A stretch of 20,101 nucleotides of DNA from the UHGV virus genome UHGV-1687506, one strand, 5' to 3'. This stretch comes from a virus. Below, in pieces: positions 1-19,965 of this stretch; position 1 is the stretch's first letter, and every line of letters begins with the position of its first letter. The notes under the pieces were generated by a model. It was not told the origin of the DNA, made no database searches, and saw only the letters and a program-made list of their open reading frames with translations. The position numbers and the translations under genes are program-made.

Positions 1-440
1 CTGACTATCGGAAGTTACAGGCACTGTTTTCCCGTATAGCGGCAGAGAAGTTTCAGGAACAACAACTGGAACAACCACACCACCAGCTGGTGGCATCTTA
101 TGATTCACTGAATCGCAAATATTCTGAATTGCTGGATGAGTTTAAATCTCTCCGGCGCTATTTCTCCGTATCAGTCTCCGTGCCTTATACCGATGTCTGG
201 ACGCATAAGCCCGTTCAGTTCTACCCGGGTAAACATCCGTGCGAGAAACCGGCGGATATGCTCCGGCAAATAATCAATGCCAGTAGTCGACCTGGTGATC
301 TGGTTGCTGATTTCTTTATGGGATCCGGTTCCACAATAAAAGCAGCAATGGCGCTGGGGCGTCGGGCGTTAGGTGTTGAACTTGAGTCAGAGCGGTTTAA
401 TCAGACGGTGAAAGAGGTAAGTGAACTGGTGGGGAAATAA
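1..440 (+). CDS. DNA N6-adenine/N4-cytosine methyltransferase, C-terminal part (5' end lies outside the window)
   Basis: The reading frame is open from base 3 with no stop until 438-440, so the track ORF at 90 (GTG) is only the tail of a longer gene. The protein carries HPCEKP (like the HPxxKP motif of beta-class amino-methyltransferases) and DFFMGSGST (FxGxG SAM-binding motif). Family assignment is from memory of YhdJ-like phage methylases. Confidence 0.75.
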   Translation, partial: DYRKLQALFSRIAAEKFQEQQLEQPHHQLVASYDSLNRKYSELLDEFKSLRRYFSVSVSVPYTDVWTHKPVQFYPGKHPCEKPADMLRQIINASSRPGDLVADFFMGSGSTIKAAMALGRRALGVELESERFNQTVKEVSELVGK

Positions 441-447
441 TTCTGGT

Positions 448-473
448 GGCCACGTTGCGTGGCCTTTTTATTT
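448..473 (+). terminator. Rho-independent terminator-like hairpin between the methylase and holin genes
   Basis: GGCCACG (448-454) and CGTGGCC (458-464) form a 7-bp GC-rich stem with a 3-nt loop, followed directly by TTTTTATTT. Confidence 0.6.
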
Positions 474-516
474 CCAACACAGCACCCGCAAATATCGCGA
501 GGTGAGAGATGACGAA

Positions 517-843
517 ATGCCTCATAACCCAAATACCTGGCTGGAGTTGGTACAGAGCTGGTGGCGTGGAGACACACCACTGGGCGCAGTAATTATGTCG
601 ATCGTTATGGCTGGTTTACGTATTGCCTATTTTGGTGGCGGTGGCGGCTGGAAGCGAAAAACGCTCGAGATTTTGCTCTGTGGCGCTCTGACACTGACCT
701 TTGCATCCGCGCTTGAGTATGTCGGATGGCCTAAATCACTTTCTGTTGCTATTGGTGGTGGGGTGGGGCTGATCGGGGTCGATGCTATTCGTGGTGCGGC
801 AATGAGAGTAATCGGTAACAAGTTTGGTAGCTCGAAGGAGTAA
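517..843 (+). CDS. Class I holin, lambda S-like family (3 predicted TM segments)
   Basis: Track ORF 421..843 overlaps the methylase gene, so I trimmed the start to the in-frame ATG at 517. The product is about 108 aa with hydrophobic segments and a charged C-terminus, and its pattern resembles lambda S. It sits immediately upstream of the endolysin. GAGG lies about 15 nt upstream, so the exact start is uncertain. Confidence 0.75.
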   Translation: MPHNPNTWLELVQSWWRGDTPLGAVIMSIVMAGLRIAYFGGGGGWKRKTLEILLCGALTLTFASALEYVGWPKSLSVAIGGGVGLIGVDAIRGAAMRVIGNKFGSSKE

Positions 844-846
844 TTT

Positions 847-1323
847 ATGCAGGAACTAAATCCTCAGCGTAAAGCTTTCCTTGATATGGTGGCCTGGTCA
901 GAAGGAACGGATAACGGGCGACAACCGACACGTAACCACGGTTATGATGTTATTGTTGGTGGTGAACTGTTCACTGATTACTCCGATCACCCTCGCAAAC
1001 TTGTCACGCTAAACCCCAAACTCAAATCAACAGCCGCCGGACGTTACCAGCTTCTTTCACGCTGGTGGGATGCTTACCGTAAACAGCTTGGCCTGAAAGA
1101 TTTTTCTCCAGAAAGCCAGGACGCTGTAGCTCTGCAGCAGATTAAAGAGCGTGGCGCTTTACCGATGATTGACCGCGGCAATATTCGTCAGGCAATCGAC
1201 CGTTGCAGCAATATCTGGGCTTCACTGCCGGGCGCTGGTTATGGTCAGTTCGAGCATAAGGCTGACAGCCTGATTGCAAAATTCAAAGAAGCGGGCGGAA
1301 CGGTCAGAGAGATTGAGGTATGA
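847..1323 (+). CDS. R: Endolysin, lambda R-type lytic transglycosylase
   Basis: The 158-aa product is near-identical over its length to lambda R as I recall it ([19 protein letters not shown]...[20 protein letters not shown]). An AAGGAG ribosome-binding site lies 8 nt upstream. Confidence 0.95.
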
Positions 1324-1778
1324 ACAGATTAACCGCGATTATCTCCGCTCTGGTTATCTGCATCATCGTCTGTCTGTCATGGGCGGTTAATCATTACCGT
1401 GATAACGCCATTACCTACAAAGCCCAGCGCGACAAAAATGCCAGAGAACTGAAGCTGGCGAACTCGACAATTACTGACATGCAGGTGCGCCAACGTGATG
1501 TTGCTGCGCTCGATGCAAAATACACGAAGGAGTTAGCTGATGCGAAAGCTGAAAATGATGCTCTGCGTGATGATGTCCCCGCTGGTCGTCGTCGGTTGCA
1601 CATCAAAGCAGTCTGTCAGTCAGTGCGTGAAGCCACCACCGCCTCCGGCATGGATAATGCAGCCTCCCCCCGACTGGCAGACACCGCTGAACGGGATTAT
1701 TTCACCCTCCGGGAACGACTGGTAATGATGCAGGCCCAACTTGAAGGTGCTCAGCAATACATAACAGAGAGAGGCTGA
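1320..1778 (+). CDS. Rz: Rz i-spanin (inner-membrane spanin subunit)
   Basis: The start overlaps the R stop (ATGA). The N-terminal TM segment and coiled-coil region are near-identical to lambda Rz; the last ~17 residues diverge from lambda. Confidence 0.93.
1540..1725 (+). CDS. Rz1: Rz1 o-spanin (outer-membrane lipoprotein), embedded in the +1 frame of Rz
   Basis: The 61-aa product has a signal peptide and LVVVGC lipobox followed by a proline-rich mature part, near-identical to lambda Rz1. The gene lies wholly inside Rz in a different frame. Confidence 0.9.
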
Positions 1779-1783
1779 TCACT

Positions 1784-1836
1784 ATGCAAAAACAACTGGA
1801 AGGAACCCAGAAGTATATTAATGAGCAGTGCAGATA
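1784..1836 (+). pseudogene. Orphan duplicate of a lambda-type Rz 3' end (17 codons)
   Basis: ATG at about 1784 to TAG at about 1836 encodes MQKQLEGTQKYINEQCR, which matches the C-terminus of lambda Rz as I recall it. It follows the intact Rz, whose own end is the diverged version [16 protein letters not shown]. Confidence 0.65.
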
Positions 1837-1868
1837 GAGCTGCCCATATCGATGGGCAACTCATGCAA

Positions 1869-2162
1869 TTATTGTGAGCAATACACCCGCGCTTCCAGCG
1901 GAGTATAAATGCCTAAGGTAATAAAACCGAGCAATCCATTTACGAATGTTTGCTGGGTTTCTGTTTTAACAACATTTTCTGCGCCGCCACAAATTTTGGC
2001 TGCATCAACAGTTTTCTCCTGTCCAATTCCCGAAACGAAGAAATGATGGGTGATGGTTTCCTTTGGTGTTACTGCTGTCGGTTTGTTTCCAACAGTAAAC
2101 GTCTGTTGAGCACATCCTGTAATAAGCATTGCCAGAGCGGCAGAAAACAACATTTTTTTCAT
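1869..2162 (-). CDS. bor: Bor outer-membrane lipoprotein (serum-resistance moron)
   Basis: Track ORF 1869..2210 trimmed to the MKKM start. The 97-aa product has a LITGC lipobox and is near-identical to lambda Bor. It is convergent with Rz, as in lambda, and AGGA precedes the ATG. Confidence 0.9.
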   Translation of the reverse strand: MKKMLFSAALAMLITGCAQQTFTVGNKPTAVTPKETITHHFFVSGIGQEKTVDAAKICGGAENVVKTETQQTFVNGLLGFITLGIYTPLEARVYCSQ

Positions 2163-2280
2163 CTTATTATCCTGCATTGTTAAAAACGGCAGAATCCTAT
2201 GTGACAACAATTAAACGATAGTTAAATGGATTGATGAAAATTAAAACTATATAGGTGGATGCTCAGCCTATTGGAGGTAG

Positions 2281-2529
2281 TCAGGATTTGAATGTCAGTC
2301 TGTTGTCGGCATTCTGGCAATGCAATTTGGATAAAGTGGGGATTAAAAAGATAGAGGCGAGCCGGTCAGGTAGAAATGAATCAGGCTCAAAGTGAAGCGG
2401 AAAAGGTCTGTGGCACAAACTGATGCTGCCATAATTACAGCCTGATGACTTGTGGAATGAAACATGTTGAACCTCCTTAATTGATGTGATTCGAGTGAGG
2501 AAGGCATTCTGTCCCTCTATAGTGTCCAT
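2281..2529 (-). CDS. Hypothetical 82-aa ORF in the AT-rich spacer (doubtful)
   Basis: It is the only ORF of 60 aa or more in the bor-HNH spacer. Its composition (F/L/S/H/C-rich) looks like AT-rich non-coding translation and I recognise no family. Confidence 0.2.
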   Translation of the reverse strand: MDTIEGQNAFLTRITSIKEVQHVSFHKSSGCNYGSISLCHRPFPLHFEPDSFLPDRLASIFLIPTLSKLHCQNADNRLTFKS

Positions 2530-2546
2530 TAAATCAAACGGGAAAT

Positions 2547-2566
2547 TTGTCTCATGCGTGAGACAA
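2547..2566. repeat. Perfect palindrome TTGTCTCA-TGCG-TGAGACAA
   Basis: Two 8-bp arms are exact reverse complements around a 4-bp centre. No U-tract follows on either strand, so it looks more like a protein-binding site than an intrinsic terminator. Confidence 0.45.
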
Positions 2567-2686
2567 GTCTCTCCATTAGTGAGTTGTATTGATTGCGACT
2601 CTTCAAAGAATCCATTACTGCGTTGATGAAAAAGGTTTACTACGAATGAAGGCTGCTATTTCGCTGGTTTCTTCATTGGAGTACAT

Positions 2687-3037
2687 ATGCCCCCACGAAC
2701 CCCAAAAGCCTGCCGTGTTCGCGGCTGCCGCTCTACAACCACGGACCCTTCAGGCTACTGCGAAAGCCACAAAAGCGAAGGCTGGAAGCAATACAAACCT
2801 GGACAATCCCGTCATCAGCGCGGCTACGGTTCGAAGTGGGACAGTATCCGCGCGCGTGTCCTGAAGCGTGACAAAGGCCTGTGCCAGTTGTGCCTGCGTG
2901 CCGGTGTGGTGCGTGAGGCGAAAACCGTTGACCACATTATCCCTAAAGCGCATGGCGGCACTGATGCTGACTGCAATCTGCAGAGTTTGTGCTGGCCGTG
3001 TCATAAGGCGAAGACGGCCCGTGAACGGCTTAAGTGA
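2687..3037 (+). CDS. HNH endonuclease (terminase-associated type)
   Basis: The 116-aa product has two Cys pairs (CxxC...CxxC) flanking DHIIPKAHGG and ...N...CWPCH, the HNH/zinc-finger signature. It sits immediately upstream of the small terminase gene, as in HK97. Confidence 0.85.
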   Translation: MPPRTPKACRVRGCRSTTTDPSGYCESHKSEGWKQYKPGQSRHQRGYGSKWDSIRARVLKRDKGLCQLCLRAGVVREAKTVDHIIPKAHGGTDADCNLQSLCWPCHKAKTARERLK

Positions 3038-3063
3038 TAATAATTCTCAACTGTTTGAGGGTA

Positions 3064-3123
3064 GGGGCGGGTCCAATCCCTGTGACCTGACGTCTTCCGG
3101 ACTGCCCGCCCCATCGTTTTTTT
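3064..3123. other. Candidate cos region: GC-rich inverted repeats plus a T7 tract between the HNH and small terminase genes
   Basis: GGGGCGGG (3064-3071) and CCCGCCCC (3105-3112) are perfect inverted repeats 33 bp apart, with TCC/GGA extending the arms, an internal GACGTC palindrome and then TTTTTTT (3117-3123). The position matches where cos lies in HK97-like genomes. The cut site cannot be determined from sequence. Confidence 0.35.
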
Positions 3124-3162
3124 ATACCCGCGAAAAATGAAATTTAACCAGGAGTGCCGCAT

Positions 3163-3657
3163 ATGGCTGGAACGGCGGGGCGTTCCGGGCGTCGCCCCAA
3201 GCCAACGGCGCGCAAGGCGCTGGCCGGAAACCCCGGCAAGCGAGCCCTGAATAAAGATGAACCTGTTTTTACGCCCATCAAAGGTGTTGAGCCACCTGAG
3301 TGGTTCGCAGAAGAAAATCTCCCTCTCGCCACGATCATGTGGCAACTGACAACCAAAGAACTCTGCGGTCAGGGCCTGTTGTGCGTGACTGACCTCGCGG
3401 TGCTTGAGCGGTGGTGCGTGGCCTATGAGTTCTGGCGACGTGCCGTGAAAAATATTGCCATACAGGGCAACACCATCACCGGTGCAATGGGCGGCAGGGT
3501 CAAAAATCCGGAGCTGACCGCCAAAAAAGAACAGGAGTCCGAGATGAGCAGCACGGGGGCAATGCTCGGACTCGACCCCAGCAGCCGCCAGCGTCTGATT
3601 GGCCTGGCGGGGCAGAAGAAAGCCACTAACCCGTTTCTGAAAATCATCGAGTCATGA
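3163..3657 (+). CDS. Terminase small subunit (P27 / HK97 gp1-like)
   Basis: Track ORF 3154..3657 trimmed to the ATG at 3163, which has AGGAG 8 nt upstream. The basic N-terminus (GRSGRRPKP...GNPGKR) is typical of P27-family small terminases. The stop overlaps the large terminase start. Confidence 0.85.
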
Positions 3658-5387
3658 GCCGGAAATCTCACCCCAACGTAAATGCTGCCAATCAGTATGC
3701 CCGTGATGTTGTGCGCGGAAAGATTGTGGCCTGCCAGTTTGTGATTCAGGCCTGCCAGCGCCATCTTGATGACCTGATGGCGGAAAAAAGTAAGTCGTTT
3801 CGTTACCGCTTCGACAAGGACCTGGCTGAACGGGCCGCCAAATTTATTCAGCTGTTGCCGCATACCAAGGGTGAGTGGGCATTCAAACGGATGCCCATCA
3901 CGCTGGAGCCGTGGCAGCTCTTTGTGATCTGCTGTGCGTTTGGCTGGGTCAATAAAGGTACCCGGCTGCGCCGCTTCCGGGAGGTGTATACCGAAATCCC
4001 CCGTAAGAACGGCAAATCGGCAATCTCTGCCGGTGTCGCCCTGTATTGTTTTGCCTGTGATAACGAGTTTGGCGCGGAAGTGTATTCCGGTGCCACGACA
4101 GAGAAACAGGCGTGGGAAGTCTTTCGCCCGGCGCGACTGATGTGTAAACGCACACCCATGCTGACGGAAGCGTTCGGGATTGAGGTTAACGCCTCAAACA
4201 TGAACCGTCCGGAGGATGGTGCGCGGTTTGAACCGCTGATCGGTAACCCCGGTGATGGTTCATCACCCCACTGTGCCGTGGTGGATGAATATCACGAGCA
4301 CGCCACAGATGCGCTTTACACCACGATGCTTACCGGGATGGGGGCGCGACGTCAGCCACTGATGTGGGCTATCACTACCGCCGGGTACAACATTGAGGGG
4401 CCGTGCTACGACAAACGGCGGGAAGTCATCGAGATGCTCAACGGCTCGGTGCCTAACGATGAACTGTTCGGGATCATCTATACCGTTGATGAAGGTGACG
4501 ACTGGACCGACCCGCAGGTGTTGGAAAAAGCCAATCCAAATATTGGCGTGTCGGTTTATCGCGAATTTTTGTTAAGTCAGCAGCAGCGTGCGAAAAATAA
4601 CGCCCGTCTGGCAAACGTCTTTAAAACAAAACACCTCAATATCTGGGTGTCGGCGCGTTCGGCGTATTTCAACCTGGTGAGCTGGCAGAGCTGCGAGGAT
4701 AAATCACTGACCCTTGAGCAGTTCGAGGGGCAGCCGTGCATTCTGGCCTTTGACCTGGCGCGTAAGCTGGATATGAACAGCATGGCGCGACTTTATACCC
4801 GCGAGATTGACGGTAAAACGCATTACTACAGTGTGGCCCCGCGTTTCTGGGTACCGTATGACACGGTGTACAGCGTCGAGAAAAATGAAGATCGACGGAC
4901 AGCCGAACGCTTTCAGAAATGGGTGGAAATGGGCGTTCTGACCGTTACCGATGGTGCGGAGGTGGATTATCGCTACATCCTCGAGGAGGCCAAAGCGGCG
5001 AACAAAATCAGCCCGGTCAGTGAGTCACCCATCGACCCCTTCGGGGCGACCGGGTTGTCACATGATCTTGCTGATGAAGACCTGAACCCCATCACTATCA
5101 TTCAGAACTACACCAACATGTCCGACCCGATGAAAGAGCTGGAAGCGGCAATTGAATCGGGGCGCTTTCATCATGATGGCAATCCCATCATGACCTGGTG
5201 TATCGGCAACGTGGTCGGCAAAACCATTCCGGGTAACGATGATGTGGTGAAGCCCGTCAAAGAGCAGGCGGAAAACAAAATCGATGGTGCAGTTGCGCTG
5301 ATTATGGCGGTTGGCAGAGCCATGCTGTACGAGAAAGAAGACACGCTGTCTGACCACATTGAGTCCTATGGGATCCGCTCGCTTTAA
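3654..5387 (+). CDS. Terminase large subunit (HK97 gp2-like ATPase/nuclease)
   Basis: The 577-aa product has a Walker A-like P-loop (PRKNGKS), a Walker B-like acidic hydrophobic stretch (AVVDEYHE) and a C-terminal nuclease-like region. The ATGA overlap with the small terminase gene indicates translational coupling. Confidence 0.93.
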
Positions 5388-5398
5388 CTGAGGTAATT

Positions 5399-5581
5399 AT
5401 GATCATGCTGATTCTCGCGCCTCTGGTGGGCGTGCTGGGGGCGCTTTTGCTGGCGTATGGTGCCTGGCTGATTTATCCCCCGGCGGGGTTTGTTGTTGCC
5501 GGGGCGTTGTGCCTGTTCTGGTCGTGGCTGGTGGCGCGATATCTCGACCGTACACAGTCGTCTGTCGGCGGAGGTAAATAG
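5399..5581 (+). CDS. Small hydrophobic protein (60 aa, about two predicted TM helices), function unknown
   Basis: [49 protein letters not shown] is strongly hydrophobic. The ORF fills the gap between the large terminase and portal genes on the same strand, and its stop overlaps the portal GTG. Confidence 0.5.
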
Positions 5582-6822
5582 TGTTCTTTTCGGGATTATT
5601 TCAAAGAAAAAGTGACGCACCGGTGACCACGCCAGCAGAGCTGGCGGATGCTATCGGGTTGTCCTACGACACCTATACCGGAAAGCAGATCAGCAGCCAG
5701 CGGGCCATGCGACTGACGGCGGTTTTTTCCTGTGTCAGGGTGCTGGCGGAGTCGGTCGGGATGTTGCCCTGCAACCTGTATCACCTGAACGGCAGCCTGA
5801 AGCAGAGAGCCACTGGCGAACGTCTGCATAAGCTGATCTCCACGCATCCCAATGGCTATATGACGCCGCAGGAGTTCTGGGAGCTGGTGGTCACCTGTCT
5901 GTGCCTGCGGGGAAACTTTTACGCCTACAAAGTGAAAGCATTTGGCGAAGTGGCTGAACTGCTGCCCGTCGATCCCGGCTGTGTGGTACCGAAGCTTAAC
6001 AGTAGCTGGGAGCCGGTCTATCAGGTCACATTCCCGGATGGCTCCACGGATGTACTGAGCCAGGAGGATATCTGGCATGTGCGCACGCTGACGCTGGACG
6101 GACTGGTGGGGCTGAATCCCATCGCCTATGCCCGCGAGGCAATATCGCTGGCGGCAGCGACCGAAGAGCACGGGGCCAGACTGTTCAGCAATGGCGCGGT
6201 GACGTCGGGTGTGTTGCGTACAGAGCAGACGCTGTCAGATCAGGCTTATGAGCGCCTGAAGAAAGATTTTGAGGAGCGTCACACCGGGCTTGGCAATGCT
6301 CACCGCCCGATGATCCTTGAGATGGGGCTGGACTGGAAGTCGATGGCGCTGAACGCCGAGGACAGCCAGTTCCTGGAAACCCGCAAGTTTCAGCTTGAAG
6401 AAATCTGTCGTCTGTTCCGGGTGCCGTTGCACATGGTGCAGAACACCGATCGCGCCACCTTCAACAATATCGAAGAGCTGGGGCTGGGATTTATCAACTA
6501 TTCACTGGTGCCGTATCTGACCCGCATCGAACAGCGGATCAACACCGGACTGGTACGAAAAAGTAAGCAGGGCGTTTATTACGCCAAATTTAACGCCGGG
6601 GCGTTACTGCGCGGGGATATGAAGTCCCGTTTTGAAGCCTACGCCACCGGGATCAACTGGGGAATTTACTCTCCCAATGACTGCCGCGACCTGGAAGATA
6701 TGAATCCGCGTCCCGGTGGTGATGTCTATCTCACACCGATGAACATGACCACGAAACCCTCCGATGGCAGTAAAGCCGGTAAGCAGAAGGATAACGCCAA
6801 TGCAGACGAAACAACGTCTTGA
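5581..6822 (+). CDS. Portal protein (HK97 family)
   Basis: The 413-aa product sits between terminase and prohead protease and resembles HK97-family portals. GGAGG lies 6 nt upstream of the GTG at 5581; the start is not certain. Confidence 0.88.
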   Translation: MFFSGLFQRKSDAPVTTPAELADAIGLSYDTYTGKQISSQRAMRLTAVFSCVRVLAESVGMLPCNLYHLNGSLKQRATGERLHKLISTHPNGYMTPQEFWELVVTCLCLRGNFYAYKVKAFGEVAELLPVDPGCVVPKLNSSWEPVYQVTFPDGSTDVLSQEDIWHVRTLTLDGLVGLNPIAYAREAISLAAATEEHGARLFSNGAVTSGVLRTEQTLSDQAYERLKKDFEERHTGLGNAHRPMILEMGLDWKSMALNAEDSQFLETRKFQLEEICRLFRVPLHMVQNTDRATFNNIEELGLGFINYSLVPYLTRIEQRINTGLVRKSKQGVYYAKFNAGALLRGDMKSRFEAYATGINWGIYSPNDCRDLEDMNPRPGGDVYLTPMNMTTKPSDGSKAGKQKDNANADETTS

Positions 6823-7450
6823 TGTACCGCTGAGTCTGAAATCTGTCAGTGACTCCGGTGAGTTTGAAGGGTATGGCTCCGTCTTTGGTGTAAAGGACAG
6901 CCACGATGATGTGGTGATGTCCGGGGCATTTGCTGCTTCCCTGCGGGCGTGGAGTGACAGAAAAGCGTTACCTGCGCTGCTCTGGCAGCACCGCATGGAT
7001 GAACCCATCGGTGTTTACACCGAAATGAAGGAAGACGATGTCGGGCTTTACGTCAGGGGACGGTTGCTTATTGATGATGATCCCCTCGCAAAACGCGCAC
7101 ATGCACACATGAAGGCCGGTTCGTTAACCGGCCTTTCTATTGGGTACGTCCTGAAAGACTGGGAATACGACCGGAGCAAAGAAGCCTTTCTGCTGAAAGA
7201 AATCGACCTCTGGGAAGTCAGCCTGGTGACGTTCCCGTCTAACGACGAGGCGCGGATCAGCGACGTCAAGAACGCACTGGCCCGCGGGGAAATCCCCGAA
7301 CAGAAAAAAATCGAAAGAGTCCTGCGAGATGTCGGACTCTCCCGTACCCAGGCCAAAGCATTCATGGCCGGGGGCTATGGCGCACTGTCCCTGCGCGACG
7401 CTGAGGATGTGGGCTCTGCACTGAATGCACTGAAAAATCTGAACTTCTAA
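6800..7450 (+). CDS. Prohead maturation protease (HK97 gp4-like, S78/U35 family)
   Basis: Track ORF 6764..7450; I prefer the ATG at 6800, which has AAGGA 9 nt upstream, whereas 6764 has no ribosome-binding site. Position between portal and major capsid gene and HK97-protease-like sequence support the call. Confidence 0.82.
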   Translation: MQTKQRLDVPLSLKSVSDSGEFEGYGSVFGVKDSHDDVVMSGAFAASLRAWSDRKALPALLWQHRMDEPIGVYTEMKEDDVGLYVRGRLLIDDDPLAKRAHAHMKAGSLTGLSIGYVLKDWEYDRSKEAFLLKEIDLWEVSLVTFPSNDEARISDVKNALARGEIPEQKKIERVLRDVGLSRTQAKAFMAGGYGALSLRDAEDVGSALNALKNLNF

Positions 7451-7464
7451 TCAGGAGAAATACG

Positions 7465-8670
7465 ATGGCGGTTGATATTAAAGATGTCGAACAGGTCGCG
7501 CAGGAGCTGCAGCAGAAGTTTGACGACTTCAAAGCAAAGAACGACAAGCGCGTGGATGCGATTGAGCAGGAAAAAGGCAAACTTGCCGGGCAGGTGGAAA
7601 CCCTGAACGGGAAACTCAGCGAGCTGGAAAACCTCAAAAGCGATCTTGAAAAAGAGCTGCTTGAGCTGAAACGTCCGGCAGGTGGTGCGCAAAATAAACT
7701 GGCCACCGAGCATAAAGAAGCGTTTGTGGGCTTCCTGCGTAAAGGCCGTGAAGATGGTCTGCGCGATCTGGAGCGCAAGGCATTACAGGTGGGCACCGAT
7801 GAAGACGGCGGCTATGCCGTGCCGGAAGCACTGGATCGCAACATTCTCACCCTGCTGAAAGATGAAGTGGTGATGCGCCAGGAAGCCACGGTGATCACCG
7901 TTGGTGGTTCCGACTACAAAAAACTGGTGAATCTGGGCGGCACGGCTTCCGGATGGGTTGGCGAGACTGACGCGCGCTCCCAGACTGCCACCTCAAAACT
8001 GGGCCTGATTGAACCTTTCATGGGGGAAATCTACGGTAACCCGCAGGCCACCCAGAAAATGCTGGATGATGCCTTTTTCAACGTGGAAGCATGGATCAAC
8101 AGCGAGCTGGCAACCGAATTTGCCGAACAGGAAGAAATTGCCTTTACCACCGGCGATGGTACCAAGAAGCCGAAAGGGTTCCTGGCGTATGAATCCACTG
8201 ATGAAACCGATAAGGTCCGGGCGTTCGGCAAACTTCAGCATATTGTATCCGGCGAAGCGACTGCGGTGACCGCAGACGCCATTATCAAACTGATTTACAC
8301 GCTGCGTAAGGCACACCGCACTGGCGCGAAGTTCATGATGAACAACAACAGCCTGTTTGCCATCCGTCTGCTTAAAGACAGCGAGGGTAACTATCTGTGG
8401 CGTCCGGGGCTGGAACTGGGGCAGCCGTCCTCTCTGGCGGGTTACGGTATCGCTGAAAACGAACAGATGCCGGATATCGCCGCTGATGCGAAAGCCATTG
8501 CATTTGGTAACTTCAAACGGGGTTACACCATCGTTGACCGTATCGGCACCCGCATTCTGCGTGACCCGTACACCAATAAACCGTTTGTCGGTTTTTATAC
8601 CACCAAGCGCACCGGCGGGATGCTGGTCGATTCGCAGGCCATCAAACTGCTGAAGATTGCAGCGGCGTAA
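7465..8670 (+). CDS. Major capsid protein, HK97 fold, with N-terminal delta (scaffolding) domain
   Basis: The 401-aa product has a ~100-aa heptad-like N-terminus rich in E/K/L, then a capsid domain. AGGAGA precedes the ATG. No separate scaffold gene is present, consistent with HK97-type assembly. Confidence 0.92.
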   Translation: MAVDIKDVEQVAQELQQKFDDFKAKNDKRVDAIEQEKGKLAGQVETLNGKLSELENLKSDLEKELLELKRPAGGAQNKLATEHKEAFVGFLRKGREDGLRDLERKALQVGTDEDGGYAVPEALDRNILTLLKDEVVMRQEATVITVGGSDYKKLVNLGGTASGWVGETDARSQTATSKLGLIEPFMGEIYGNPQATQKMLDDAFFNVEAWINSELATEFAEQEEIAFTTGDGTKKPKGFLAYESTDETDKVRAFGKLQHIVSGEATAVTADAIIKLIYTLRKAHRTGAKFMMNNNSLFAIRLLKDSEGNYLWRPGLELGQPSSLAGYGIAENEQMPDIAADAKAIAFGNFKRGYTIVDRIGTRILRDPYTNKPFVGFYTTKRTGGMLVDSQAIKLLKIAAA

Positions 8671-8675
8671 TCACT

Positions 8676-8699
8676 CAGGGGCGCGGAACCGCGCCCCCT
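8676..8699 (+). terminator. GC-rich hairpin immediately after the major capsid gene
   Basis: CAGGGGCGCGG and CCGCGCCCCTG are exact reverse complements (about 10 bp of stem) placed 6 nt after the capsid stop. The U-tract is weak (TGTTCTG), so at most a partial terminator or stability element. Confidence 0.45.
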
Positions 8700-8719
8700 G
8701 TTCTGACGGGTGAAGAATC

Positions 8720-8920
8720 ATGATCCTGAAACAAGATCTGAAATGGTCACCGGACGGTATGCGTGTTGAGGTCATTCGGGCCGGTGAGTATGACGACGGG
8801 GCGCTTCCTGCCCGGGTGCAGGAGATTGCACTTCAGGCCGGGTTAGCAGAGCGCGGAACCAGTGCAAAAAGCAGTAAAGCGACAAAAGAGAAAAAAGCCA
8901 CGACCAGTAAAGAGGGCTGA
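8720..8920 (+). CDS. Hypothetical 66-aa protein with a Lys/Ser/Thr-rich C-terminal tail
   Basis: Track ORF in the gap between the capsid and connector genes on the same strand; its stop is 2 nt before the next start. My manual indexing disagreed with the track by 1 nt here; I follow the track. Confidence 0.5.
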   Translation: MILKQDLKWSPDGMRVEVIRAGEYDDGALPARVQEIALQAGLAERGTSAKSSKATKEKKATTSKEG

Positions 8921-8922
8921 GT

Positions 8923-9246
8923 ATGCTTCTGACAATGGAAGAGATTAAAGCCCAACTCCGGCTGGATGAGGATTTCGATGCTGATGACCGCCATCTGCAA
9001 CTGCTGGCCTGTGCGGCGCAAAAGCGGACGGAAACGTATCTGAACCGGAAGCTCTATGCACCGGATGAATCCATTCCGGACAGCGATCCGGACGGGCTGC
9101 ACCTGCCGGATGATATTCGTCTGGGGATGCTGATGCTTATCAGCCATTTTTACGAAAACCGCTCGTCGGTTACGGAAGTGGAAAAACTCGACATGCCGCA
9201 GAGTTTTGGCTGGCTTGTCGGCCCGTACAGGTACTTTCCGCAATGA
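8923..9246 (+). CDS. Head-tail connector protein (gp6-like)
   Basis: The 107-aa product is at the conserved position after the capsid gene and resembles gp6-like connector proteins. Confidence 0.78.
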   Translation: MLLTMEEIKAQLRLDEDFDADDRHLQLLACAAQKRTETYLNRKLYAPDESIPDSDPDGLHLPDDIRLGMLMLISHFYENRSSVTEVEKLDMPQSFGWLVGPYRYFPQ

Positions 9247-9653
9247 AAATTCGTCAGGCGCAGACCAGCGCAACCTACATTCTGCCGGACCCCGGTGAAC
9301 TGAATAAACGCGTCCTGATCCGCCTGCGGGTGGATGTGCCTGCGGATAACTTTGGCGTGGAGCCTCAATACCCGGTTACGTTCCGGACATGGGCGAAGGT
9401 TATCCAGACCAGTGCCACCACCTGGCAGGAAACCGCGCAGACCGGGGACGCCATCACCCATTACATCACCATTCGTTATCGCCGGGGGATCACCGCTGAT
9501 TATGAGGTGGTCTGCGGTGACAGTGTGTACCGGGTGAAACGTCAGCGCGATCTGAACGGGGCGCGGCGCTTTCTGCTGCTGGAGTGTACGGAGCTGGGCG
9601 AATGTAGGCAGAGTCACGGAGGCAACAATGACGACTTCCTTTTTGCACGTTGA
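9243..9653 (+). CDS. Head closure / head-tail adaptor protein
   Basis: 136 aa, ATGA-coupled to the preceding gene, in the conserved position of the head-closure family. Confidence 0.72.
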   Translation: MKIRQAQTSATYILPDPGELNKRVLIRLRVDVPADNFGVEPQYPVTFRTWAKVIQTSATTWQETAQTGDAITHYITIRYRRGITADYEVVCGDSVYRVKRQRDLNGARRFLLLECTELGECRQSHGGNNDDFLFAR

Positions 9654-10134
9654 TTTTCAGCAGCCCGCGGAGATGCGCTTTAACCGCGCCCGTGTCCGGC
9701 GGGCGTTTGTCACGATTGGTCAGCGTCATATGCGTGATGCCCGTCGGCTGGTGATGCGCCGTGCGCGGTCGGCACCGGGTGAAAACCCCGGTTATCAGAC
9801 CGGACGCCTGGCTCGTTCGATTGGTTACATGGTACCCAGAGCCAGTAAACATCGCCCTGGTTTTATAGCACGTATAGCCCCTAACCAGCGTAATGGAGAG
9901 GGAAACCGCCGTATCACCGGTGATTTTTATCCGGCTTTTTTGTTCTATGGCGTGAGGCGAGGGGCAAAGCGTCGTCGCAGCCATCATCGTGGTGCATCCG
10001 GTGGCAGCGGCTGGCGGCTGGCTCCACGTAATAACTTTATGGTGGAAACTCTTGAAAAGAACCGCAGCTGGACACGCTATTTTCTGGCGCGGGAATTACG
10101 TAAATCACTGAAGCCGGAGCGACGACACAGATGA
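9628..10134 (+). CDS. HK97 gp10-family neck/tail component
   Basis: 168-aa arginine-rich protein in the conserved position. GGAGG precedes the ATG by 5 nt, and the gene overlaps its upstream neighbour by 26 nt. Confidence 0.72.
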   Translation: MTTSFLHVDFQQPAEMRFNRARVRRAFVTIGQRHMRDARRLVMRRARSAPGENPGYQTGRLARSIGYMVPRASKHRPGFIARIAPNQRNGEGNRRITGDFYPAFLFYGVRRGAKRRRSHHRGASGGSGWRLAPRNNFMVETLEKNRSWTRYFLARELRKSLKPERRHR

Positions 10135-10691
10135 AACTGACGCCTGTTATTGCTGCGCTGCGTGCCCGCTGCCCGTATTTTGAAAACCGGGTGGCAGGCG
10201 CGGCACAGTTCAAAAATCTGCCGGAGGTCGGAAAGCTGAGACTCCCGGCGGCGTATGTGGTACCGGGTGATGATTCTCCGGGAGAAAACAAAAGCCAGAC
10301 CGACTACTGGCAGGAGCTGAAAGAGGGCTTCTCCGTGGTTGTCATACTGAGTAACGGGCGTGATGAGCGCGGTCAGTTTGCTTCGTATGATGTGGTGGAC
10401 GATGTCCGGCAGATGCTCTTTAAGGCCCTGCTGGGCTGGAACCCGGAAGCGTGCGGTAACCCGATTACCTATGACGGCGGCACGCTGCTGGATCTGAATC
10501 GTCATGAGCTGATTTATCAGTTCGATTTTTCGGTCATCAGCGAGCTGACCGAAGACGATACCCGCCAGCAGGATGACCTGAACAGTCTGGATGAACTGCG
10601 AACGCTGGCGATTGATGTTGATTATCTCGATCCCGGTAACGGGCCTGACGGCGATATCGAACATCACACCGAAATACCCCTTCCTTCCTGA
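10131..10691 (+). CDS. Putative tail completion/terminator protein (Mu-type module; family uncertain)
   Basis: 186 aa, ATGA-coupled to the upstream gene, located just before the sheath gene. The acidic C-terminal half is plausible for a real protein, but the family assignment is tentative. Confidence 0.6.
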   Translation: MKLTPVIAALRARCPYFENRVAGAAQFKNLPEVGKLRLPAAYVVPGDDSPGENKSQTDYWQELKEGFSVVVILSNGRDERGQFASYDVVDDVRQMLFKALLGWNPEACGNPITYDGGTLLDLNRHELIYQFDFSVISELTEDDTRQQDDLNSLDELRTLAIDVDYLDPGNGPDGDIEHHTEIPLPS

Positions 10692-10699
10692 GGATCATC

Positions 10700-10870
10700 A
10701 TGTTTGTGAAACCTGTTAAAGGGCGGTCAGTGCCTGACCCTGCCCGCGGCGACCTTTTGCCCGCCGAAGGGCGAAATGTTGATGAGAACAACTACTGGCT
10801 GCGCCGTGAAGCAGCGGGTGATATCCGGCGCGTGAATAAAAAGGTGAACACCGATGACGATAAGCTTTAA
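10700..10870 (+). CDS. Small 56-aa basic protein, function unknown
   Basis: Found by hand (below the track's length cutoff): ATG about 10700 to TAA about 10868-10870, MFVKPVKGRSVPDPARGDLLPAEGRNVDENNYWLRREAAGDIRRVNKKVNTDDDKL. It fills the gap between neighbours and overlaps the sheath start by about 17 nt. Confidence 0.45.
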   Translation: MFVKPVKGRSVPDPARGDLLPAEGRNVDENNYWLRREAAGDIRRVNKKVNTDDDKL

Positions 10871-12350
10871 CACCATTCCGTCGAATACGCTGGTTCCGCT
10901 GTTTTATGCGGAAATGGATAACCAGGCTGCGAATACTGCACAGGACAGCGGAGCATCGCTGCTGATTGGTCATGCCAATAACGGTGCAGAGATTGTTGCC
11001 AACAGTCTGGTGCTGATGCCGTCGGCAGACTATGCACGCCAGATTTGTGGTGCGGGAAGTCAGCTGGCGCGTATGGTCGAGGCTTATCGCCAGACCGACC
11101 CGTTTGGTGAGCTGTATGTGATTGCCGTTCCGGAAGCCACAGGCGCGGCGGCAACGGTTACGCTGACGGTGACCGGGGAAGCAACCGAAAGCGGCACGGT
11201 GAATGTCTATGTGGGACGTACCCGCGTGCAGGCTCCGGTGACCAACGGCGATAACGTCACGACGATTGCCAGCAGTATCAAAGATGCCATCAATGCCGTT
11301 CCGACTCTGCCGTTTACAGCTTCATCTTCGGCTGGCGTGGTCACACTGACCGCGCGTCATAAGGGGCTTTGCGGGAATGAAATTCCTGTCAGCCTCAATT
11401 ACTACGGCTTTGGTGGGGGCGAAGTGCTGCCTGCGGGCGTACAGATTGCTGTGGCGACGGGGACCGCCGGAACGGGCTCTCCTGTTCTCACCGGCGCGGT
11501 GGCTGCAATGGCGGATGAGCCGTTTGATTATATCGGCCTGCCGTTCAACGACACGGCCTCCGTTAACACGCTGGTGACCGAGATGAACGATACCAGCGGT
11601 CGCTGGAGCTATGCGCGTCAGCTGTATGGTCATGTGTATACGGCAAAGATCGGCACGCTGTCAGAACTGGTGACCGCAGGTGACCAGTTTAACCAGCAGC
11701 ACATTACCCTGGCGGGGTACGAAAAAGAGACCCAGACGCCTGCTGACGAGCTGGCGGCAAGCCGTACTGCCCGCGCAGCGGTGTTTATTCGCAACGATCC
11801 GGCACGTCCCACGCAGACCGGTGAGCTGGTGGGTATGCTGCCTGCGCCGAAGGGGAAACGGTTCACGATGACCGAACAACAGACCCTGCTGTCTCATGGC
11901 GTGGCAACGGCGTATGTCGAAAGCGGGGTGCTGCGCATTCAGCGTGATGTCACCACGTACAGGAAAAACGCTTACGGGGTTGCGGATAACAGCTACCTCG
12001 ACAGTGAGACACTGCATACCAGCGCGTATGTACTGCGCAAACTGAAATCCGTCATTACCAGTAAGTACGGGCGTCACAAGCTTGCCAGTGACGGTACCCG
12101 CTTTGGTCCCGGTCAGGCGATTGTCACCCCGGCGGTGATCAAAGGGGAACTGCTGGCAACCTACCGTCAGCTTGAGCGTGCGGGGATCGTGGAAAACTAC
12201 GAACTGTTTAAGCAGTACCTGGTTGTGGAGCGTGATGCCAGCGATCCGAACCGCCTGAACACGCTGTTCCCGCCTGACTATGTTAACCAGTTGCGTGTCT
12301 TTGCCGTGGTTAACCAGTTCCGTCTTCAGTATTCAGAGGAGTCTGCATAA
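10854..12350 (+). CDS. Contractile tail sheath protein (Mu gpL-like)
   Basis: 498 aa, followed by a tube gene, chaperone pair and tape measure gene, which is the canonical myovirus order. AAGGTG precedes the ATG. Confidence 0.85.
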   Translation: MTISFNTIPSNTLVPLFYAEMDNQAANTAQDSGASLLIGHANNGAEIVANSLVLMPSADYARQICGAGSQLARMVEAYRQTDPFGELYVIAVPEATGAAATVTLTVTGEATESGTVNVYVGRTRVQAPVTNGDNVTTIASSIKDAINAVPTLPFTASSSAGVVTLTARHKGLCGNEIPVSLNYYGFGGGEVLPAGVQIAVATGTAGTGSPVLTGAVAAMADEPFDYIGLPFNDTASVNTLVTEMNDTSGRWSYARQLYGHVYTAKIGTLSELVTAGDQFNQQHITLAGYEKETQTPADELAASRTARAAVFIRNDPARPTQTGELVGMLPAPKGKRFTMTEQQTLLSHGVATAYVESGVLRIQRDVTTYRKNAYGVADNSYLDSETLHTSAYVLRKLKSVITSKYGRHKLASDGTRFGPGQAIVTPAVIKGELLATYRQLERAGIVENYELFKQYLVVERDASDPNRLNTLFPPDYVNQLRVFAVVNQFRLQYSEESA

Positions 12351-12706
12351 TGGCACGTATCGGGGGAACCTGTTATTTCAAAATTGACGGTCAGCAGCTA
12401 TCGCTGACCGGCGGCATTGAGGTGCCCATGAACAGGACGGTCAATGATGACATCATCGGCCTGGACGGTTCAGTGGACCGCAAGGAAACTCACCGTGCGC
12501 CCTATGTCAAAGGGACCTTCAAGGTGCCGAAGAATTTTCCGGTGAGCAAAATCACCTCGTCTGATGAGATGACCATCACTGCCGAGCTGGCGAACGGTCA
12601 GGTCTATGTACTGTCGTCTGCCTGGCTGCACGGCGAAGCGAACCATAATGCCGAAGAAGGCACGGTCGATCTTGAGTTCCACGGTGAAGAAGGGGATTAC
12701 CAGTAA
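12350..12706 (+). CDS. Tail tube protein (Mu gpM-like)
   Basis: 118 aa, TAATG overlap with the sheath stop, GAGGAG ribosome-binding site, conserved position after the sheath gene. Confidence 0.8.
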   Translation: MARIGGTCYFKIDGQQLSLTGGIEVPMNRTVNDDIIGLDGSVDRKETHRAPYVKGTFKVPKNFPVSKITSSDEMTITAELANGQVYVLSSAWLHGEANHNAEEGTVDLEFHGEEGDYQ

Positions 12707-12975
12707 TGAAAGAGCTTGAGTTAAAGAAACCGATTACCGCTCATGGCGAGACACTCTCCGTACTGGAGTTTGATGAGCCCACCGGGAAAGATGTCCGCGA
12801 GCTGGGGTATCCCTACCAGATGAATCAGGATGAGTCCGTCAGACTTCTGGCGCATGTGGTATCGAAATACATCGTGCGGCTGGCGAAAGTGCCGCAAAGC
12901 TCTGTCGACCAGATGTCTCCGGCAGACCTGAATGCAGCGGCGTGGCTTGTGGCCGGTTTTTTCCTCCAGGCCTGA
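12706..12975 (+). CDS. Tail assembly chaperone, short form (lambda G analogue)
   Basis: 89 aa, TAATG-coupled to the tube gene and located directly upstream of the tape measure gene. It ends 10 nt after a T-rich slippery site. Confidence 0.7.
   Translation: MKELELKKPITAHGETLSVLEFDEPTGKDVRELGYPYQMNQDESVRLLAHVVSKYIVRLAKVPQSSVDQMSPADLNAAAWLVAGFFLQA
12957..12963 (+). promoter_or_regulatory. Candidate -1 ribosomal slippery heptamer T_TTT_TTC
   Basis: The sequence fits X_XXY_YYZ in the zero frame of the chaperone (codons TTT TTC at 12958-12963). Slipping back one base gives FFPPGLTAEY... in the overlapping frame. Confidence 0.55.
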
Positions 12976-13124
12976 CGGCTGAATACCTCACTGATCGCTT
13001 CTTTGACTGCGCCAGTTACTGGCGCATTAATCCTTTCGAATTGCTGAATATGCCGATCAGTGAAATTCCCTTACTGGTCAGTCAGGCAAACAGGATAGAG
13101 CAGGAGAAACGCACACATGGCTGA
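12957..13124 (+). CDS. -1 frame extension of the tail chaperone (lambda GT analogue), predicted to be made by programmed frameshifting
   Basis: The -1 frame is open from 12942 to 13124 and overlaps the end of the chaperone ORF across the heptamer T TTT TTC (12957-12963). Its stop overlaps the tape measure start. Confidence 0.55.
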   Translation, partial: FFPPGLTAEYLTDRFFDCASYWRINPFELLNMPISEIPLLVSQANRIEQEKRTHG

Positions 13125-14952
13125 ATTTGAGCTTAAGGCGTTGATCACCGGTGTCGACAGGCTTTCTCCCGCGCTGTCGAAAATGCAAAAGAAAATCCGG
13201 GGATTTAAACGCCAGGCGGAAGAAGCGTCACAGGGTGGGCTGGCGCTTGGTGGCGGACTGGCAGCGGGTCTGACGCTTTCCCTGAAATCTTATGCCGATC
13301 AGGAAAACGCCGCCACCGGGCTGAAAGTCGCCATGATGGATGCGAACGGCGAGGTTGGAAAGAGCTTTCAGGACATCAATAAACTGGCTATTGGCCTGGG
13401 TAACCAGCTACCCGGTACAACGGCTGATTTCCAGAACATGATGCAGATGCTGGTGCGTCAGGGGATCCCGGCAGAAAACATTCTGGGTGGTGTGGGTAAA
13501 GCGACAGCTTATCTTGCGGTACAACTGAAAAAAACACCGGAAGCGGCTGCTGAGTTTGCTGCAAAGATGCAGGATGCTACCGGAACGGCGTCAGAAGACA
13601 TGATGGGGCTGTTCGACACTATCCAGAAGGCGTTTTATCTGGGCGTTGACGATACCAACATGTTGTCCTTCTTCACTAAAACCAGTTCTGTTCTGAAGAT
13701 GGTGAACAAGGACGGTCTTCAGGCTGCACAGAGCCTTGCCCCCATCAGCGTCATGATGGATCAGATGGGGATGAACGGGGAGTCGGCAGGTAATGCCCTG
13801 CGAAAAGTTATCCAGTCCGGATTAAGCGTTAAGAAAATCAGGGACGTCAATAAAGTCATGGCCCGCCAGAGACTCGGGGTACAGCTCGATTTTACTGACG
13901 GCAAAGGAAGTTTTGGCGGTCTTGATAACATGTTCAGGCAACTGGCAAAGCTGCGAAAACTGACCGACGTTAAGCGAACAGGTGTACTTAAGGCAATATT
14001 TGGTGATGATGCCGAAACCCTTCAGGTGGTCAATGCACTAATCGATAAAGGAAAGGATGGCTACGATCAGATCCAGCAGAAGATGAATAAACAGGCCAGC
14101 CTGAATAAACGTGTTCAGGCCCAGCTTGGTACGCTGTCCAACCTGTGGGAGGCAATGACGGGGACCGCAACTAACGGCCTTGCGGCTATTGGCGGCGCAT
14201 TTTCTGGTGACGCCAAAAATATCACGCAATGGCTGGGGGAGTTGGGGGAGAAATTCACGAAGTTTGCGGATGAAAATCCCCGGGTTATTCGCGGCGTCGT
14301 CGGGCTTGCTGCCGGTCTTGCGATTCTGAAACTGGGATTGATGGGCGTGGGCAGTGCCATCAGTATTGTCAGCAGGATCATGTCGATGACGCCGATTGGC
14401 ATGATTGCGACGGCGATAGCCCTGGCTGCGGGATTAATTATCACTAACTGGGATGTTGTTGGACCTTATTTTAAGAAACTCTGGGAAACCATTGGTCCTT
14501 ATTTTGAGGCTGGCTGGGAACTCCTTAAGAAAGTTTTTGCCTGGTCGCCGCTGGGGATGGTGATCAATAACTGGGGGCCGGTTGTTAAGTGGTTTCAGGA
14601 TATGTGGGACAAGCTGAAGCCAATTATTGAGTGGTTTACCGACAGTTCCGGTGACACGGTCGATGCCATTAACTCTGCGCAGTGGGGCGCGGGTGCTTAT
14701 GATGCTTATGGGACGGGAATATCGGCGCGGGGATACATACCTTATCCGGTGGTGGATCTGGCTCAGTCAAACAACGCCTCCGGTGCCACAGGCCCGAATC
14801 CCTTCATGATTAACAAAGCTTCTGCGCCAAAAGTTGATGGTGAGATCAAGGTCTCTTTTGTGAATTCGCCTCCGGGTATGCGGGTTATGGAAACGCGATC
14901 CAGCGGTTTTGATGTCAGCCATGATGTTGGCTATACGCGCTTTGGCAGGTAA
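13117..14952 (+). CDS. Tail tape measure protein
   Basis: 611 aa with Ala/Gly/Leu-rich repeats, a hydrophobic segment (VIRGVVGLAAGLAILKLGLMGVGSAISIV) and Trp-rich periodic motifs. It lies after the chaperone pair. Confidence 0.9.
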   Translation: MAEFELKALITGVDRLSPALSKMQKKIRGFKRQAEEASQGGLALGGGLAAGLTLSLKSYADQENAATGLKVAMMDANGEVGKSFQDINKLAIGLGNQLPGTTADFQNMMQMLVRQGIPAENILGGVGKATAYLAVQLKKTPEAAAEFAAKMQDATGTASEDMMGLFDTIQKAFYLGVDDTNMLSFFTKTSSVLKMVNKDGLQAAQSLAPISVMMDQMGMNGESAGNALRKVIQSGLSVKKIRDVNKVMARQRLGVQLDFTDGKGSFGGLDNMFRQLAKLRKLTDVKRTGVLKAIFGDDAETLQVVNALIDKGKDGYDQIQQKMNKQASLNKRVQAQLGTLSNLWEAMTGTATNGLAAIGGAFSGDAKNITQWLGELGEKFTKFADENPRVIRGVVGLAAGLAILKLGLMGVGSAISIVSRIMSMTPIGMIATAIALAAGLIITNWDVVGPYFKKLWETIGPYFEAGWELLKKVFAWSPLGMVINNWGPVVKWFQDMWDKLKPIIEWFTDSSGDTVDAINSAQWGAGAYDAYGTGISARGYIPYPVVDLAQSNNASGATGPNPFMINKASAPKVDGEIKVSFVNSPPGMRVMETRSSGFDVSHDVGYTRFGR

Positions 14953-14975
14953 TGAAAAATTAATCTGTTAATGAG

Positions 14976-14997
14976 TCCCACTCCGGTGGGATTTTTT
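14976..14997 (+). terminator. Intrinsic terminator-like hairpin after the tape measure gene
   Basis: TCCCAC-TCCG-GTGGGA (6-bp stem, 4-nt loop) is followed directly by TTTTTT. It sits in the 60-nt gap between the tape measure stop and the ATG at 15013. Confidence 0.5.
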
Positions 14998-15012
14998 ATG
15001 TACGGAGTTTAT

Positions 15013-16319
15013 ATGACGTGGAAAGACAGATTTCAGGACGCGTCATTTCGCGGTGTGCCGTTTAAGGTTGAAGAAGAAAGTACGGGAACCGGTCGTCGTG
15101 TGGAAACGCACGAATACCCGAACCGCGACAAACCCTATACCGAAGACCTAGGGAAAATCACTTTCCGCCCGTCCATCACGGCTTATGTGGTGGGAGATGA
15201 CTGCTTTGACCAGCGCGATCGCCTGATTAACGCGCTGAATAAACCCGGTCCCGGCACGCTTGTCCATCCGACTTACGGTGAGCTGAAAGTCTGTGTTGAC
15301 GGAGAGGTTCGGGTCAGCACATCGAAGAGTGAAGGGCGTATTGTCCGCTTTGACCTGAAGTTTGTCGAAGCGGGAGAACTCTCTTACCCCACATCAGGTG
15401 CGGCGACGGCGCAGACGCTGATGTCATCCTGTTCTGCACTGGATGACTGCATCAGTGACAGTTTCAGTAGTTTCAGTATCGATGGCGTGGCAGATTTTGT
15501 GCAGAACGACGTCGTCGGTAATGCCAGCACAATGCTTGGGTATGTTTCTGATGCGATGAAAGTGGTGGATTCTGCCGTATCGGATGCCGCCAGGCTGTTG
15601 CAGGGGGATATCTCGGTACTTCTGCCGCCGCCATCGTCAGGCAAAAATTTCGTTGAGCAGGTGCAGAAAATGTGGCGTACCGGGAAGCGCCTTTATGGTA
15701 ACGCCAGCGACCTGGTCACCATGATCAAAACGCTTTCCTGCAACCGCGCGGCGTCTGGAAAACGGACAGTAAAACCACCGCCACGGCTACGCAGCAGCGT
15801 AACGTGGTTGCCAGCACCCTTCGTACGACCGCAATCAGCGAAGCGGCGTATGCCGTCACCCGATTGCTTGCGCCAACAACTTCCGCGGTGATGCAGAATG
15901 CCGCAGTGGGGCAGGCAACAACACCTGCGCAGAGCACTGGCTGGCCTTCCGTCACGAATCCGGCACTGAACAATGCACCGGCGGTGAAAAACACAGTTGA
16001 CCTGCCGACGTGGGAAGAACTGACTGACATTCGCGACACACTGAATACGGCAATTGATAAGGAGTTGTCCCGTACAACCAGTGATGCGCTGTTTCTGGCG
16101 CTGCGCCGGGTGAAAGCAGATCTGAATGCGGATATCAACACGCGCCTTGAACAGTCTGCACGGATCATTCAGCGCACGCCGGATGAGGTTTTACCCGCGC
16201 TGGTGCTGGCGGCGACCTGGTTTGATAACGCGGCGCGTGACGCGGACATTATCCGGCGTAATGCCATTACGCATCCCGGCTTTGTGCCGGTGATCCCTCT
16301 GAAGGTGCCAGTGCAATGA
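15013..16319 (+). pseudogene. DNA circulation protein (Mu gpN-like) interrupted by a frameshift near 15735-15755
   Basis: The N-terminal part (track ORF 14971..15891, real start MTWKDRFQDASFRGVPF at 15013 with GGAG upstream) and the C-terminal part (frame of track ORF 15804..16319, open from 15702) are in different frames. Plausible protein sequence switches from one frame to the other inside CAACCGCGCGGCG, and each frame turns to R/P/S-rich nonsense beyond the switch. Confidence 0.7.
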
Positions 16320-19962: not shown

Positions 19963-19965
19963 TCC

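Follow-up and report, generated by a model that had tools for sequence, protein, structure and literature searches.

The 3′ end of the lysis gene Rz in the DNA analysed here (20,101 nt; its whole length is called the window) contains two diverged gene ends in direct tandem. We propose that this arrangement probably arose in one step, by templated insertion of a short patch from a Rac-type Rz allele into the lambda-type Rz/Rz1-bor region of a PCN061/W21-like prophage. Consistent with this proposal, sequence comparison assigns both flanks of the patch to one prophage lineage and confines the foreign DNA to 59-115 nt (at least 1706-1764, at most 1651-1765), with a net insertion of 56 nt. The features of the region are collected in Table 1.

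Table 1. Features of the lysis region and its surroundings, in window coordinates
Feature	Position	Strand	Remark
DNA methyltransferase gene, 3′ end	1-440		lambdoid late region, left end of window
Holin, lambda family	517-843		upstream of R
R endolysin, lambda R-like, 158 aa	847-1323	+	same as in relatives
Hybrid Rz (i-spanin), 152 aa	1320-1778	+	PF03245, E = 4e-50
Hybrid Rz1 (o-spanin), 61 aa, in Rz +1 frame	1540-1725	+	PF06085, E = 1.8e-19
Private SNP G>C	1578	+	Rz A87P, synonymous in Rz1
Left homologous switch interval, recipient to Rac-type donor	1651-1708	+	
56-nt insertion, copy 1 of divergent tandem	1709-1764	+	equally placed at 1710-1765
Displaced complete lambda-type Rz 3′ end	1765-1837	+	24 codons plus TAG, out of Rz frame
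Copy 2 of divergent tandem	1765-1820	+	
TGA, parental Rz1 stop, now Rz stop	1776-1778	+	W21 rzoD ends here
Orphan ATG frame	1784-1837	+	
bor/iss lipoprotein gene, convergent	1869-2162	-	PF06291, E = 6e-31
HNH endonuclease, P27-type terminase, HK97-type head and contractile-tail genes	beyond bor/iss		

Both spanin genes are recognizable by profile. Membership of PF03245 (Phage_lysis) was taken as a profile score above the curated cut-off together with an N-terminal transmembrane segment and a periplasmic coiled-coil domain. Rz scored 169.7 bits over residues 29-150 (cut-off 25.4), which places it in the family, and the 18 residues of its N terminus align with those of lambda Rz without a difference. 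Rz1, which lies within 1320-1778, scored 69.6 bits against PF06085 (cut-off 27.9) and belongs with the o-spanins; it has a lipobox with Cys20 (LVVVGC), a PPPPP stretch and C29. The convergent gene, annotated as iss in relatives, is a member of PF06291 (106.7 bits). A promoter and terminator scan of 1600-2400 returned no element bearing on the scar. Further downstream, bor/iss is separated from the HNH endonuclease gene by roughly 520 nt (2163-2686) with short open reading frames only; if HK97/P27-type packaging modules are a guide, the cos site may be here.

A three-way alignment reveals how the tandem is built. With slashes marking the segment boundaries, the lambda type reads ...TTCACCCTC/AGAGAGAGGCTGATCACTATGCAA...GAGCAGTGCAGATAG, the K-12 Rac type reads ...TTCACCCTC/CGGGAACGACTGGTAATGATGCAGGCC...CAATACATAAC/CGAGCAGTGTTTAAAGTAA, and the window reads ...TTCACCCTC/CGGGAACGAC...CAATACATAAC/AGAGAGAGGCTGATCACTATGCAA...CAGATAG; that is, in the window the Rac-specific segment runs for its first 56 nt and then gives way to the whole lambda-specific segment. 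The two copies agree in register at 35 of 56 positions (62.5% identity), the window-wide maximum for a 56-nt period (mean 14.0, sd 3.5; binomial P about 3e-9 to 5e-7). Because of this maximum, and because copy 1 is identical to an independent natural Rac-type Rz allele, the repeat is not due to chance. Tandem Repeats Finder reported no repeat in 1500-2000, because 62.5% identity is beneath its reach, and the repeat was demonstrated by the direct in-register count in its place. The initial annotation had described tandem, diverged copies of the Rz 3′ end of about 50 bp each; the diverged copies stand, as diverged alleles, and the period is 56 nt.

The downstream copy had been attributed to a lambda-type end, and bases 1765-1837 are indeed identical to the lambda Rz 3′ end. 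As had been described, the Rz stop is followed by a 5-nt spacer (tcact, 1779-1783) and then by an ATG at 1784 that opens a frame of 17 codons (MQKQLEGTQKYINEQCR), closed by TAG at 1835-1837, 1 nt beyond the end first given. Both the peptide and its DNA are identical to residues 137-153 of lambda Rz (J02459), bearing out the earlier recognition of a lambda Rz C terminus. We rejected this orphan frame as a gene in its own right: its ATG is the codon for lambda Rz Met137, and the homology runs 18 nt further upstream without a start codon. The lambda-type remnant begins at 1765 (AGA GAG AGG CTG ATC ACT, encoding RERLIT), 19 nt before the ATG and not at it, and thus the complete divergent lambda-type 3′ end has been kept. 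These 24 codons are no longer translated as part of Rz, and it is their internal Met137 codon that resembles an orphan start. From the TAG of the remnant to the stop of bor/iss at 1869 there are 31 nt, equal to the gap in relatives and close to the 32 bp or so previously claimed.

The insert matches the Rz/Rz1 3′ end of Rac-type prophages (rzpR/rzoR type) without a single difference. Over 1700-1769, Rac-type alleles in more than 1,500 E. coli records, K-12 Rac included, match the window at 69 of 70 positions, and the single mismatch is the first lambda-type base past the junction. Rac-type ends are tied to trkG, which follows them both in K-12 Rac and in Rac-like prophages still bearing S, R and Rz, and lambda-type ends are tied to bor/iss; the general boundary between the two classes lies at TTCACCCTC. 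Over 1000-1769 the best full-length Rac-type alleles reach at most 96% identity (among the records with full-length matches), indicating that the upstream part of the window is not donor-derived. The donor would probably have been a co-resident prophage or an infecting phage. In PCN061, no Rac prophage or trkG was found within 1.295-1.345 Mb and 1.400-1.450 Mb.

On the recipient side, the whole window aligns at 99.7% BLAST identity, with gaps counted, to prophages of three E. coli strains (W21, PCN061 and 4012), and it differs from its nearest relatives, PCN061 and W21, by 5-6 substitutions and three indels across 20 kb. The flanks, 1-1708 and 1765-20101, are both near-identical to a single lineage, PCN061/W21/123636. 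Compared base by base with PCN061, positions 1-3300 differ only by the SNPs at 1578 and 1706 and by the 56-nt insertion, and the remainder of the window differs from PCN061/W21 by two deletions (22 nt and 26 nt) and a few SNPs. Seven of the eight sites that make up the Rz haplotype of the PCN061/W21/123636 clade are kept (T1373, G1385, G1485, C1490, A1493, C1577 and A1650). The eighth, 1706, lies 3 nt from the insert and is C in the window versus T in the clade; Rac-type alleles, like the other Rz alleles in the comparison, have C there, which marks this base, on sequence grounds, as donor-derived and co-converted with the insert. The SNP at 1578 was considered as part of the donor tract and rejected, because the donor has G at this position and the neighbouring recipient-specific C1577 is kept.

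These comparisons bear directly on the model put forward in the initial annotation, in which a single illegitimate crossover joined a phage with a Rac-type Rz, upstream, to a lambda-type phage, downstream. On that model the lysis cassette would have come from another lambdoid phage, and the site would be a module boundary. The linkage of Rac-type ends to trkG and of lambda-type ends to bor/iss does make TTCACCCTC a natural mosaic boundary. However, 1-1708 is identical to the lambda-type PCN061/W21 prophage except at 1578 and 1706, the private haplotype of the clade continues to 1650, and the Rac-type alleles with full-length matches stay at or below the 96% given above. We therefore consider a single crossover extremely unlikely. 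The cassette is not from another phage, and the nearest relatives to the left and to the right of the scar are the same PCN061/W21 prophage, which leaves no module boundary there.

The two junctions of the patch are of different kinds. On the left, the recipient state is found at 1650 and the donor state at 1706, with donor and recipient identical across 1651-1705, so that this junction lies in homology. On the right, the joint ATAAC/AGAGAG at 1764/1765 (junction sequence CAATACATAACAGAGAGAGGCTGATCAC) slides by exactly 1 nt, equivalent to 1 nt of microhomology; an extra A that would extend the microhomology to CAGAG is present in no Rac-type allele among 5,426 complete E. coli genomes. The recipient kept all of its bases at the insertion, and for this reason the Rac-type and lambda-type ends stand in tandem. 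The earlier attribution of the arrangement to illegitimate recombination is upheld by the right joint, which is non-homologous apart from the single nucleotide, but the illegitimate junction is not in the gap between the stop and the ATG, where it had been put; it falls within the new Rz reading frame, at 1764/1765.

The hallmark of homology-facilitated illegitimate recombination is a homologous end paired with a non-homologous one, and both occur at this scar: one junction is homologous and the other has 1 nt of microhomology. Sequence comparison shows which alleles acted as recipient and donor and where the junctions lie, and the mechanism that we infer from the junctions is homology-facilitated illegitimate recombination. 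This process has been described in Acinetobacter, S. pneumoniae and P. stutzeri, and it usually deletes some recipient DNA. In E. coli it takes place at about 3.5e-10; of four joints that were sequenced, three lacked homology (PMC3240628).

In the templated-patch model, the donor tract (59-115 nt) would enter through the common part of Rz, which is about 95% identical between the alleles, within 1651-1708, bringing the donor base at 1706. It would then continue for 56 nt into the Rac-specific segment and rejoin the recipient precisely where the recipient's own divergent segment begins. Such a path may reflect one-ended strand invasion or annealing: the donor strand would pair with the shared portion of Rz, its heterologous tail of 56 nt would escape trimming, and synthesis or ligation would resume at the flap base, which is the first lambda-specific base and the start of an (AG)4 run. 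More speculatively, rejoining at the flap base would place the insert exactly at the boundary of heterology. Against the templated patch stand the zero loss of recipient DNA, a rejoining exact to the boundary that is accounted for only by this speculative flap-base model, and the absence of the junction from every other sequence searched.

Tandem geometry without loss of recipient bases would also be expected if the scar had formed in two steps, with slippage first producing a perfect 56-nt tandem duplication of the lambda-type end and copy 1 then being converted to the Rac type. Yet no relative has an intermediate with identical copies, the conversion of copy 1 alone would again require a non-homologous right end at the same base, and two rare events would be needed in place of one; we regard this sequence of events as highly improbable. 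Slippage on its own was rejected as an explanation, because copies made in this way are identical at birth, whereas the copies here are alike at 35 of 56 positions and the first is identical to an independent allele.

The allele combines features of systems that are already described. With lambda Rz/Rz1 and its convergent bor (J02459; DLP12 rzpD/rzoD), the window shares the order S-R-Rz(Rz1)-bor, the position of Rz1 in the +1 frame and the matches to the Pfam families Phage_lysis, Rz1 and Lambda_Bor. It differs from lambda in that the 56-nt insert shifts both frames, giving an Rz of 152 aa that ends in ITERG and an Rz1 of 61 aa that ends in GNDW, and in that the lambda-type end lies outside the translated Rz. 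With the Rac-type rzpR/rzoR pair of K-12 Rac and intact Rac-like prophages, the window shares 1709-1764, the GNDW end of Rz1 and Rz residues 131-149; by contrast, the Rac-type Rz ends in YITEQCLK (154 aa), the last residues in the window are ERG, and neither the upstream Rz, R and S nor the downstream bor/iss are of the Rac type.

The event, too, has known counterparts. Like the window, homology-facilitated illegitimate recombination combines a homologous junction with an illegitimate one that has 0-1 nt of homology, and adds a short heterologous segment beside a homologous anchor (PMC3240628); in the window, however, there is no deletion of the recipient, and the donor is a paralogous prophage allele and not demonstrably linear incoming DNA. 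Exchange between phages and defective prophages, DLP12 included, has been reported in the R/Rz region (De Paepe et al. 2014, PMC3945230). This relaxed exchange likewise sets a lambdoid lysis region against a resident prophage allele, but those events are homologous on both sides and replace cleanly, whereas the right side in the window is non-homologous and a tandem scar remains. The genes and the kind of event are thus already known, and this allele alone is new; it leaves our knowledge of spanins and of phage mosaicism unchanged. Its interest is as a clean natural case, a homology-anchored illegitimate insertion between two paralogous prophage genes for which recipient, donor and the two junctions are all identifiable at base resolution. 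It is also a caution that a diverged tandem of gene ends at the edge of a lysis cassette need not mean a module swap.

Because Rz1 is embedded in Rz, one 56-nt event gave both proteins a new tail. The insertion is a +2 frameshift, and Rz now borrows the stop codon of Rz1: its tail, GAG AGA GGC TGA, consists of the former last three codons and the stop of the lambda-type Rz1. Residues 1-130 of the hybrid Rz are of the recipient type (with the private A87P), residues 131-149 are of the Rac type and residues 150-152 are ERG. The protein therefore ends in E150-R151-G152, without the terminal cysteine (C152 in lambda; EQCLK in the Rac type). Rz1 has not kept its lambda C terminus either, a point raised in the initial annotation: it changes from the parental ...ISPSERG-stop (60 aa) to the full Rac-type ...ISPSGNDW-stop (61 aa), since the insert encodes its last codons.

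Lambda genetics provides a guide to what these tails might do (Cahill et al. 2017, PMC5295617). In lambda Rz, nonsense mutations at 151 and 152 (Q151X and C152X) are lysis-defective and R153X is tolerated; the missense changes Q151R and Q151K are lysis-defective, and C152S is tolerated when Rz1 C29 is present (PMC5295617). E150 of Rz pairs with R59 of Rz1, and Rz1 remains functional when truncated to residue 55 (PMC5295617). Prolines at Rz residues 64-93 are mostly defective, A88P and R91P among them, as is V86G, which adjoins residue 87 (PMC5295617). Set against the C-terminal requirements that these lambda-context data define (a length of at least 152, E150, and neither R nor K at 151), the window Rz has 152 aa and E150 but R151 and G152. 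By analogy, the spanin is probably impaired, given R151 and A87P. The hybrid could still work, given the pairing of its Rac-type C-terminal helix with a full Rac-type Rz1 and the retention of E150 and Rz1 C29. At 152 aa this Rz would pass for intact in annotation pipelines, a pitfall if it is impaired as lambda genetics suggests it probably is.

It is conceivable that the change was adaptive, with the co-evolving distal coiled coil of Rz and tail of Rz1 exchanged together to give a functional Rac-type spanin and the stranded lambda end left as a harmless by-product. The patch spans exactly the segment that differs between the allele classes in both proteins, E150 and the length of 152 in Rz are kept along with C29 in Rz1, and lambda Rz tolerates R153X, as well as C152S with Rz1 C29. 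On the other side, Rz ends in ERG and not in the Rac-type EQCLK, Q151R is lysis-defective in lambda, the private A87P falls within the proline-sensitive coiled coil, and two private frameshifts in tail genes of the same prophage argue against purifying selection on its lytic functions. We consider such an interface swap quite unlikely.

The allele is attested in one assembly only, within the collections searched. Its junction does not occur in 5,426 complete E. coli genomes or 50,697 phage records, nor in the GTDB species representatives, JGI metagenomes and IMG/VR. The exact junction 28-mer had zero matches in genome and metagenome contigs, and the exact 20-mer had zero matches in viral and metagenome contigs. 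Two 20-mer matches in genome contigs, from Oxalobacteraceae and Ruminococcus MAGs, were rejected as chance, because their flanks are 25-29% identical to the window. In an exact-protein look-up, there was no record of the hybrid Rz, the hybrid Rz1 or the two truncated tail proteins.

Such uniqueness would be expected of an assembly or sequencing artefact, for example a chimeric consensus of reads from a Rac-type and a lambda-type locus in one genome, and the absence of exact records for the four proteins points the same way, as do three private medium-sized indels in the window, each with a private SNP nearby. However, a joint with an overlap of 1 nt cannot arise from k-mer or overlap assembly. 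There are zero single-base indels in 20 kb, and so the base-level quality looks high; co-conversion of the SNP at 1706 and clean outcomes for the reading frames also look biological. We therefore judge an artefact to be very unlikely.

The other two private indels lie in tail genes. A deletion of 22 nt at 15737/15738 (CGGTGTCAGCCTCGGCAGCGAT in relatives), with 1 nt of microhomology, frameshifts the DNA circularization protein gene (about 15013-16319) and splits it into open reading frames at 14971-15891 and 15804-16319. A deletion of 26 nt at 18096/18097, with 3 nt of microhomology (GGC), frameshifts gp46, a baseplate gene of the phage GP46 family (about 17943-18342), and splits it into 17940-18194 and 18055-18342. 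Neither deletion is present in the 30 records listed of the 1,112 that carry the region. The two deletions predict a defective prophage; the prophage looks like one in decay, and the Rz scar looks most simply like one more of several recent disruptive lesions.

All three private indels (+56, -22 and -26 nt) have 1-3 nt of microhomology. The only private point mutations in the 20 kb, at 1578, 15957 and 18293, are each absent from the 5,426 complete E. coli genomes, and each lies 131-220 nt from one of the indels (P about 3e-4, a rough, post hoc value). This pairing could come from error-prone break repair or from local assembly trouble. We also entertained, as a doubtful possibility, that mutagenic repair of double-strand breaks in a natural E. 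coli isolate left three footprints, the Rz patch being one of them. If this were true, the scar would represent a bacterial 'templated insertion' form of end joining, with a paralogous prophage gene as the template, and the window would hold a natural, nucleotide-resolved case of break-associated clustered mutagenesis.

Lysis cassettes of two other E. coli strains were also noted. In EC96 (L007 3321-3775), a Rac-type Rz within an otherwise intact S-R-Rz-trkG cassette has a 10-nt deletion, equivalent to window positions 1348-1357, and is annotated as frameshifted; it is another, independently decaying Rz. In H7 (L003 17385-21291), a methylase-holin-R-Rz-iss block has Rz-iss flanks identical to those of the window. 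The block is stranded between an ompC-type porin gene and IS1 copies, with a duplicated prophage tail region downstream, and its lysis cassette is an isolated surviving remnant.
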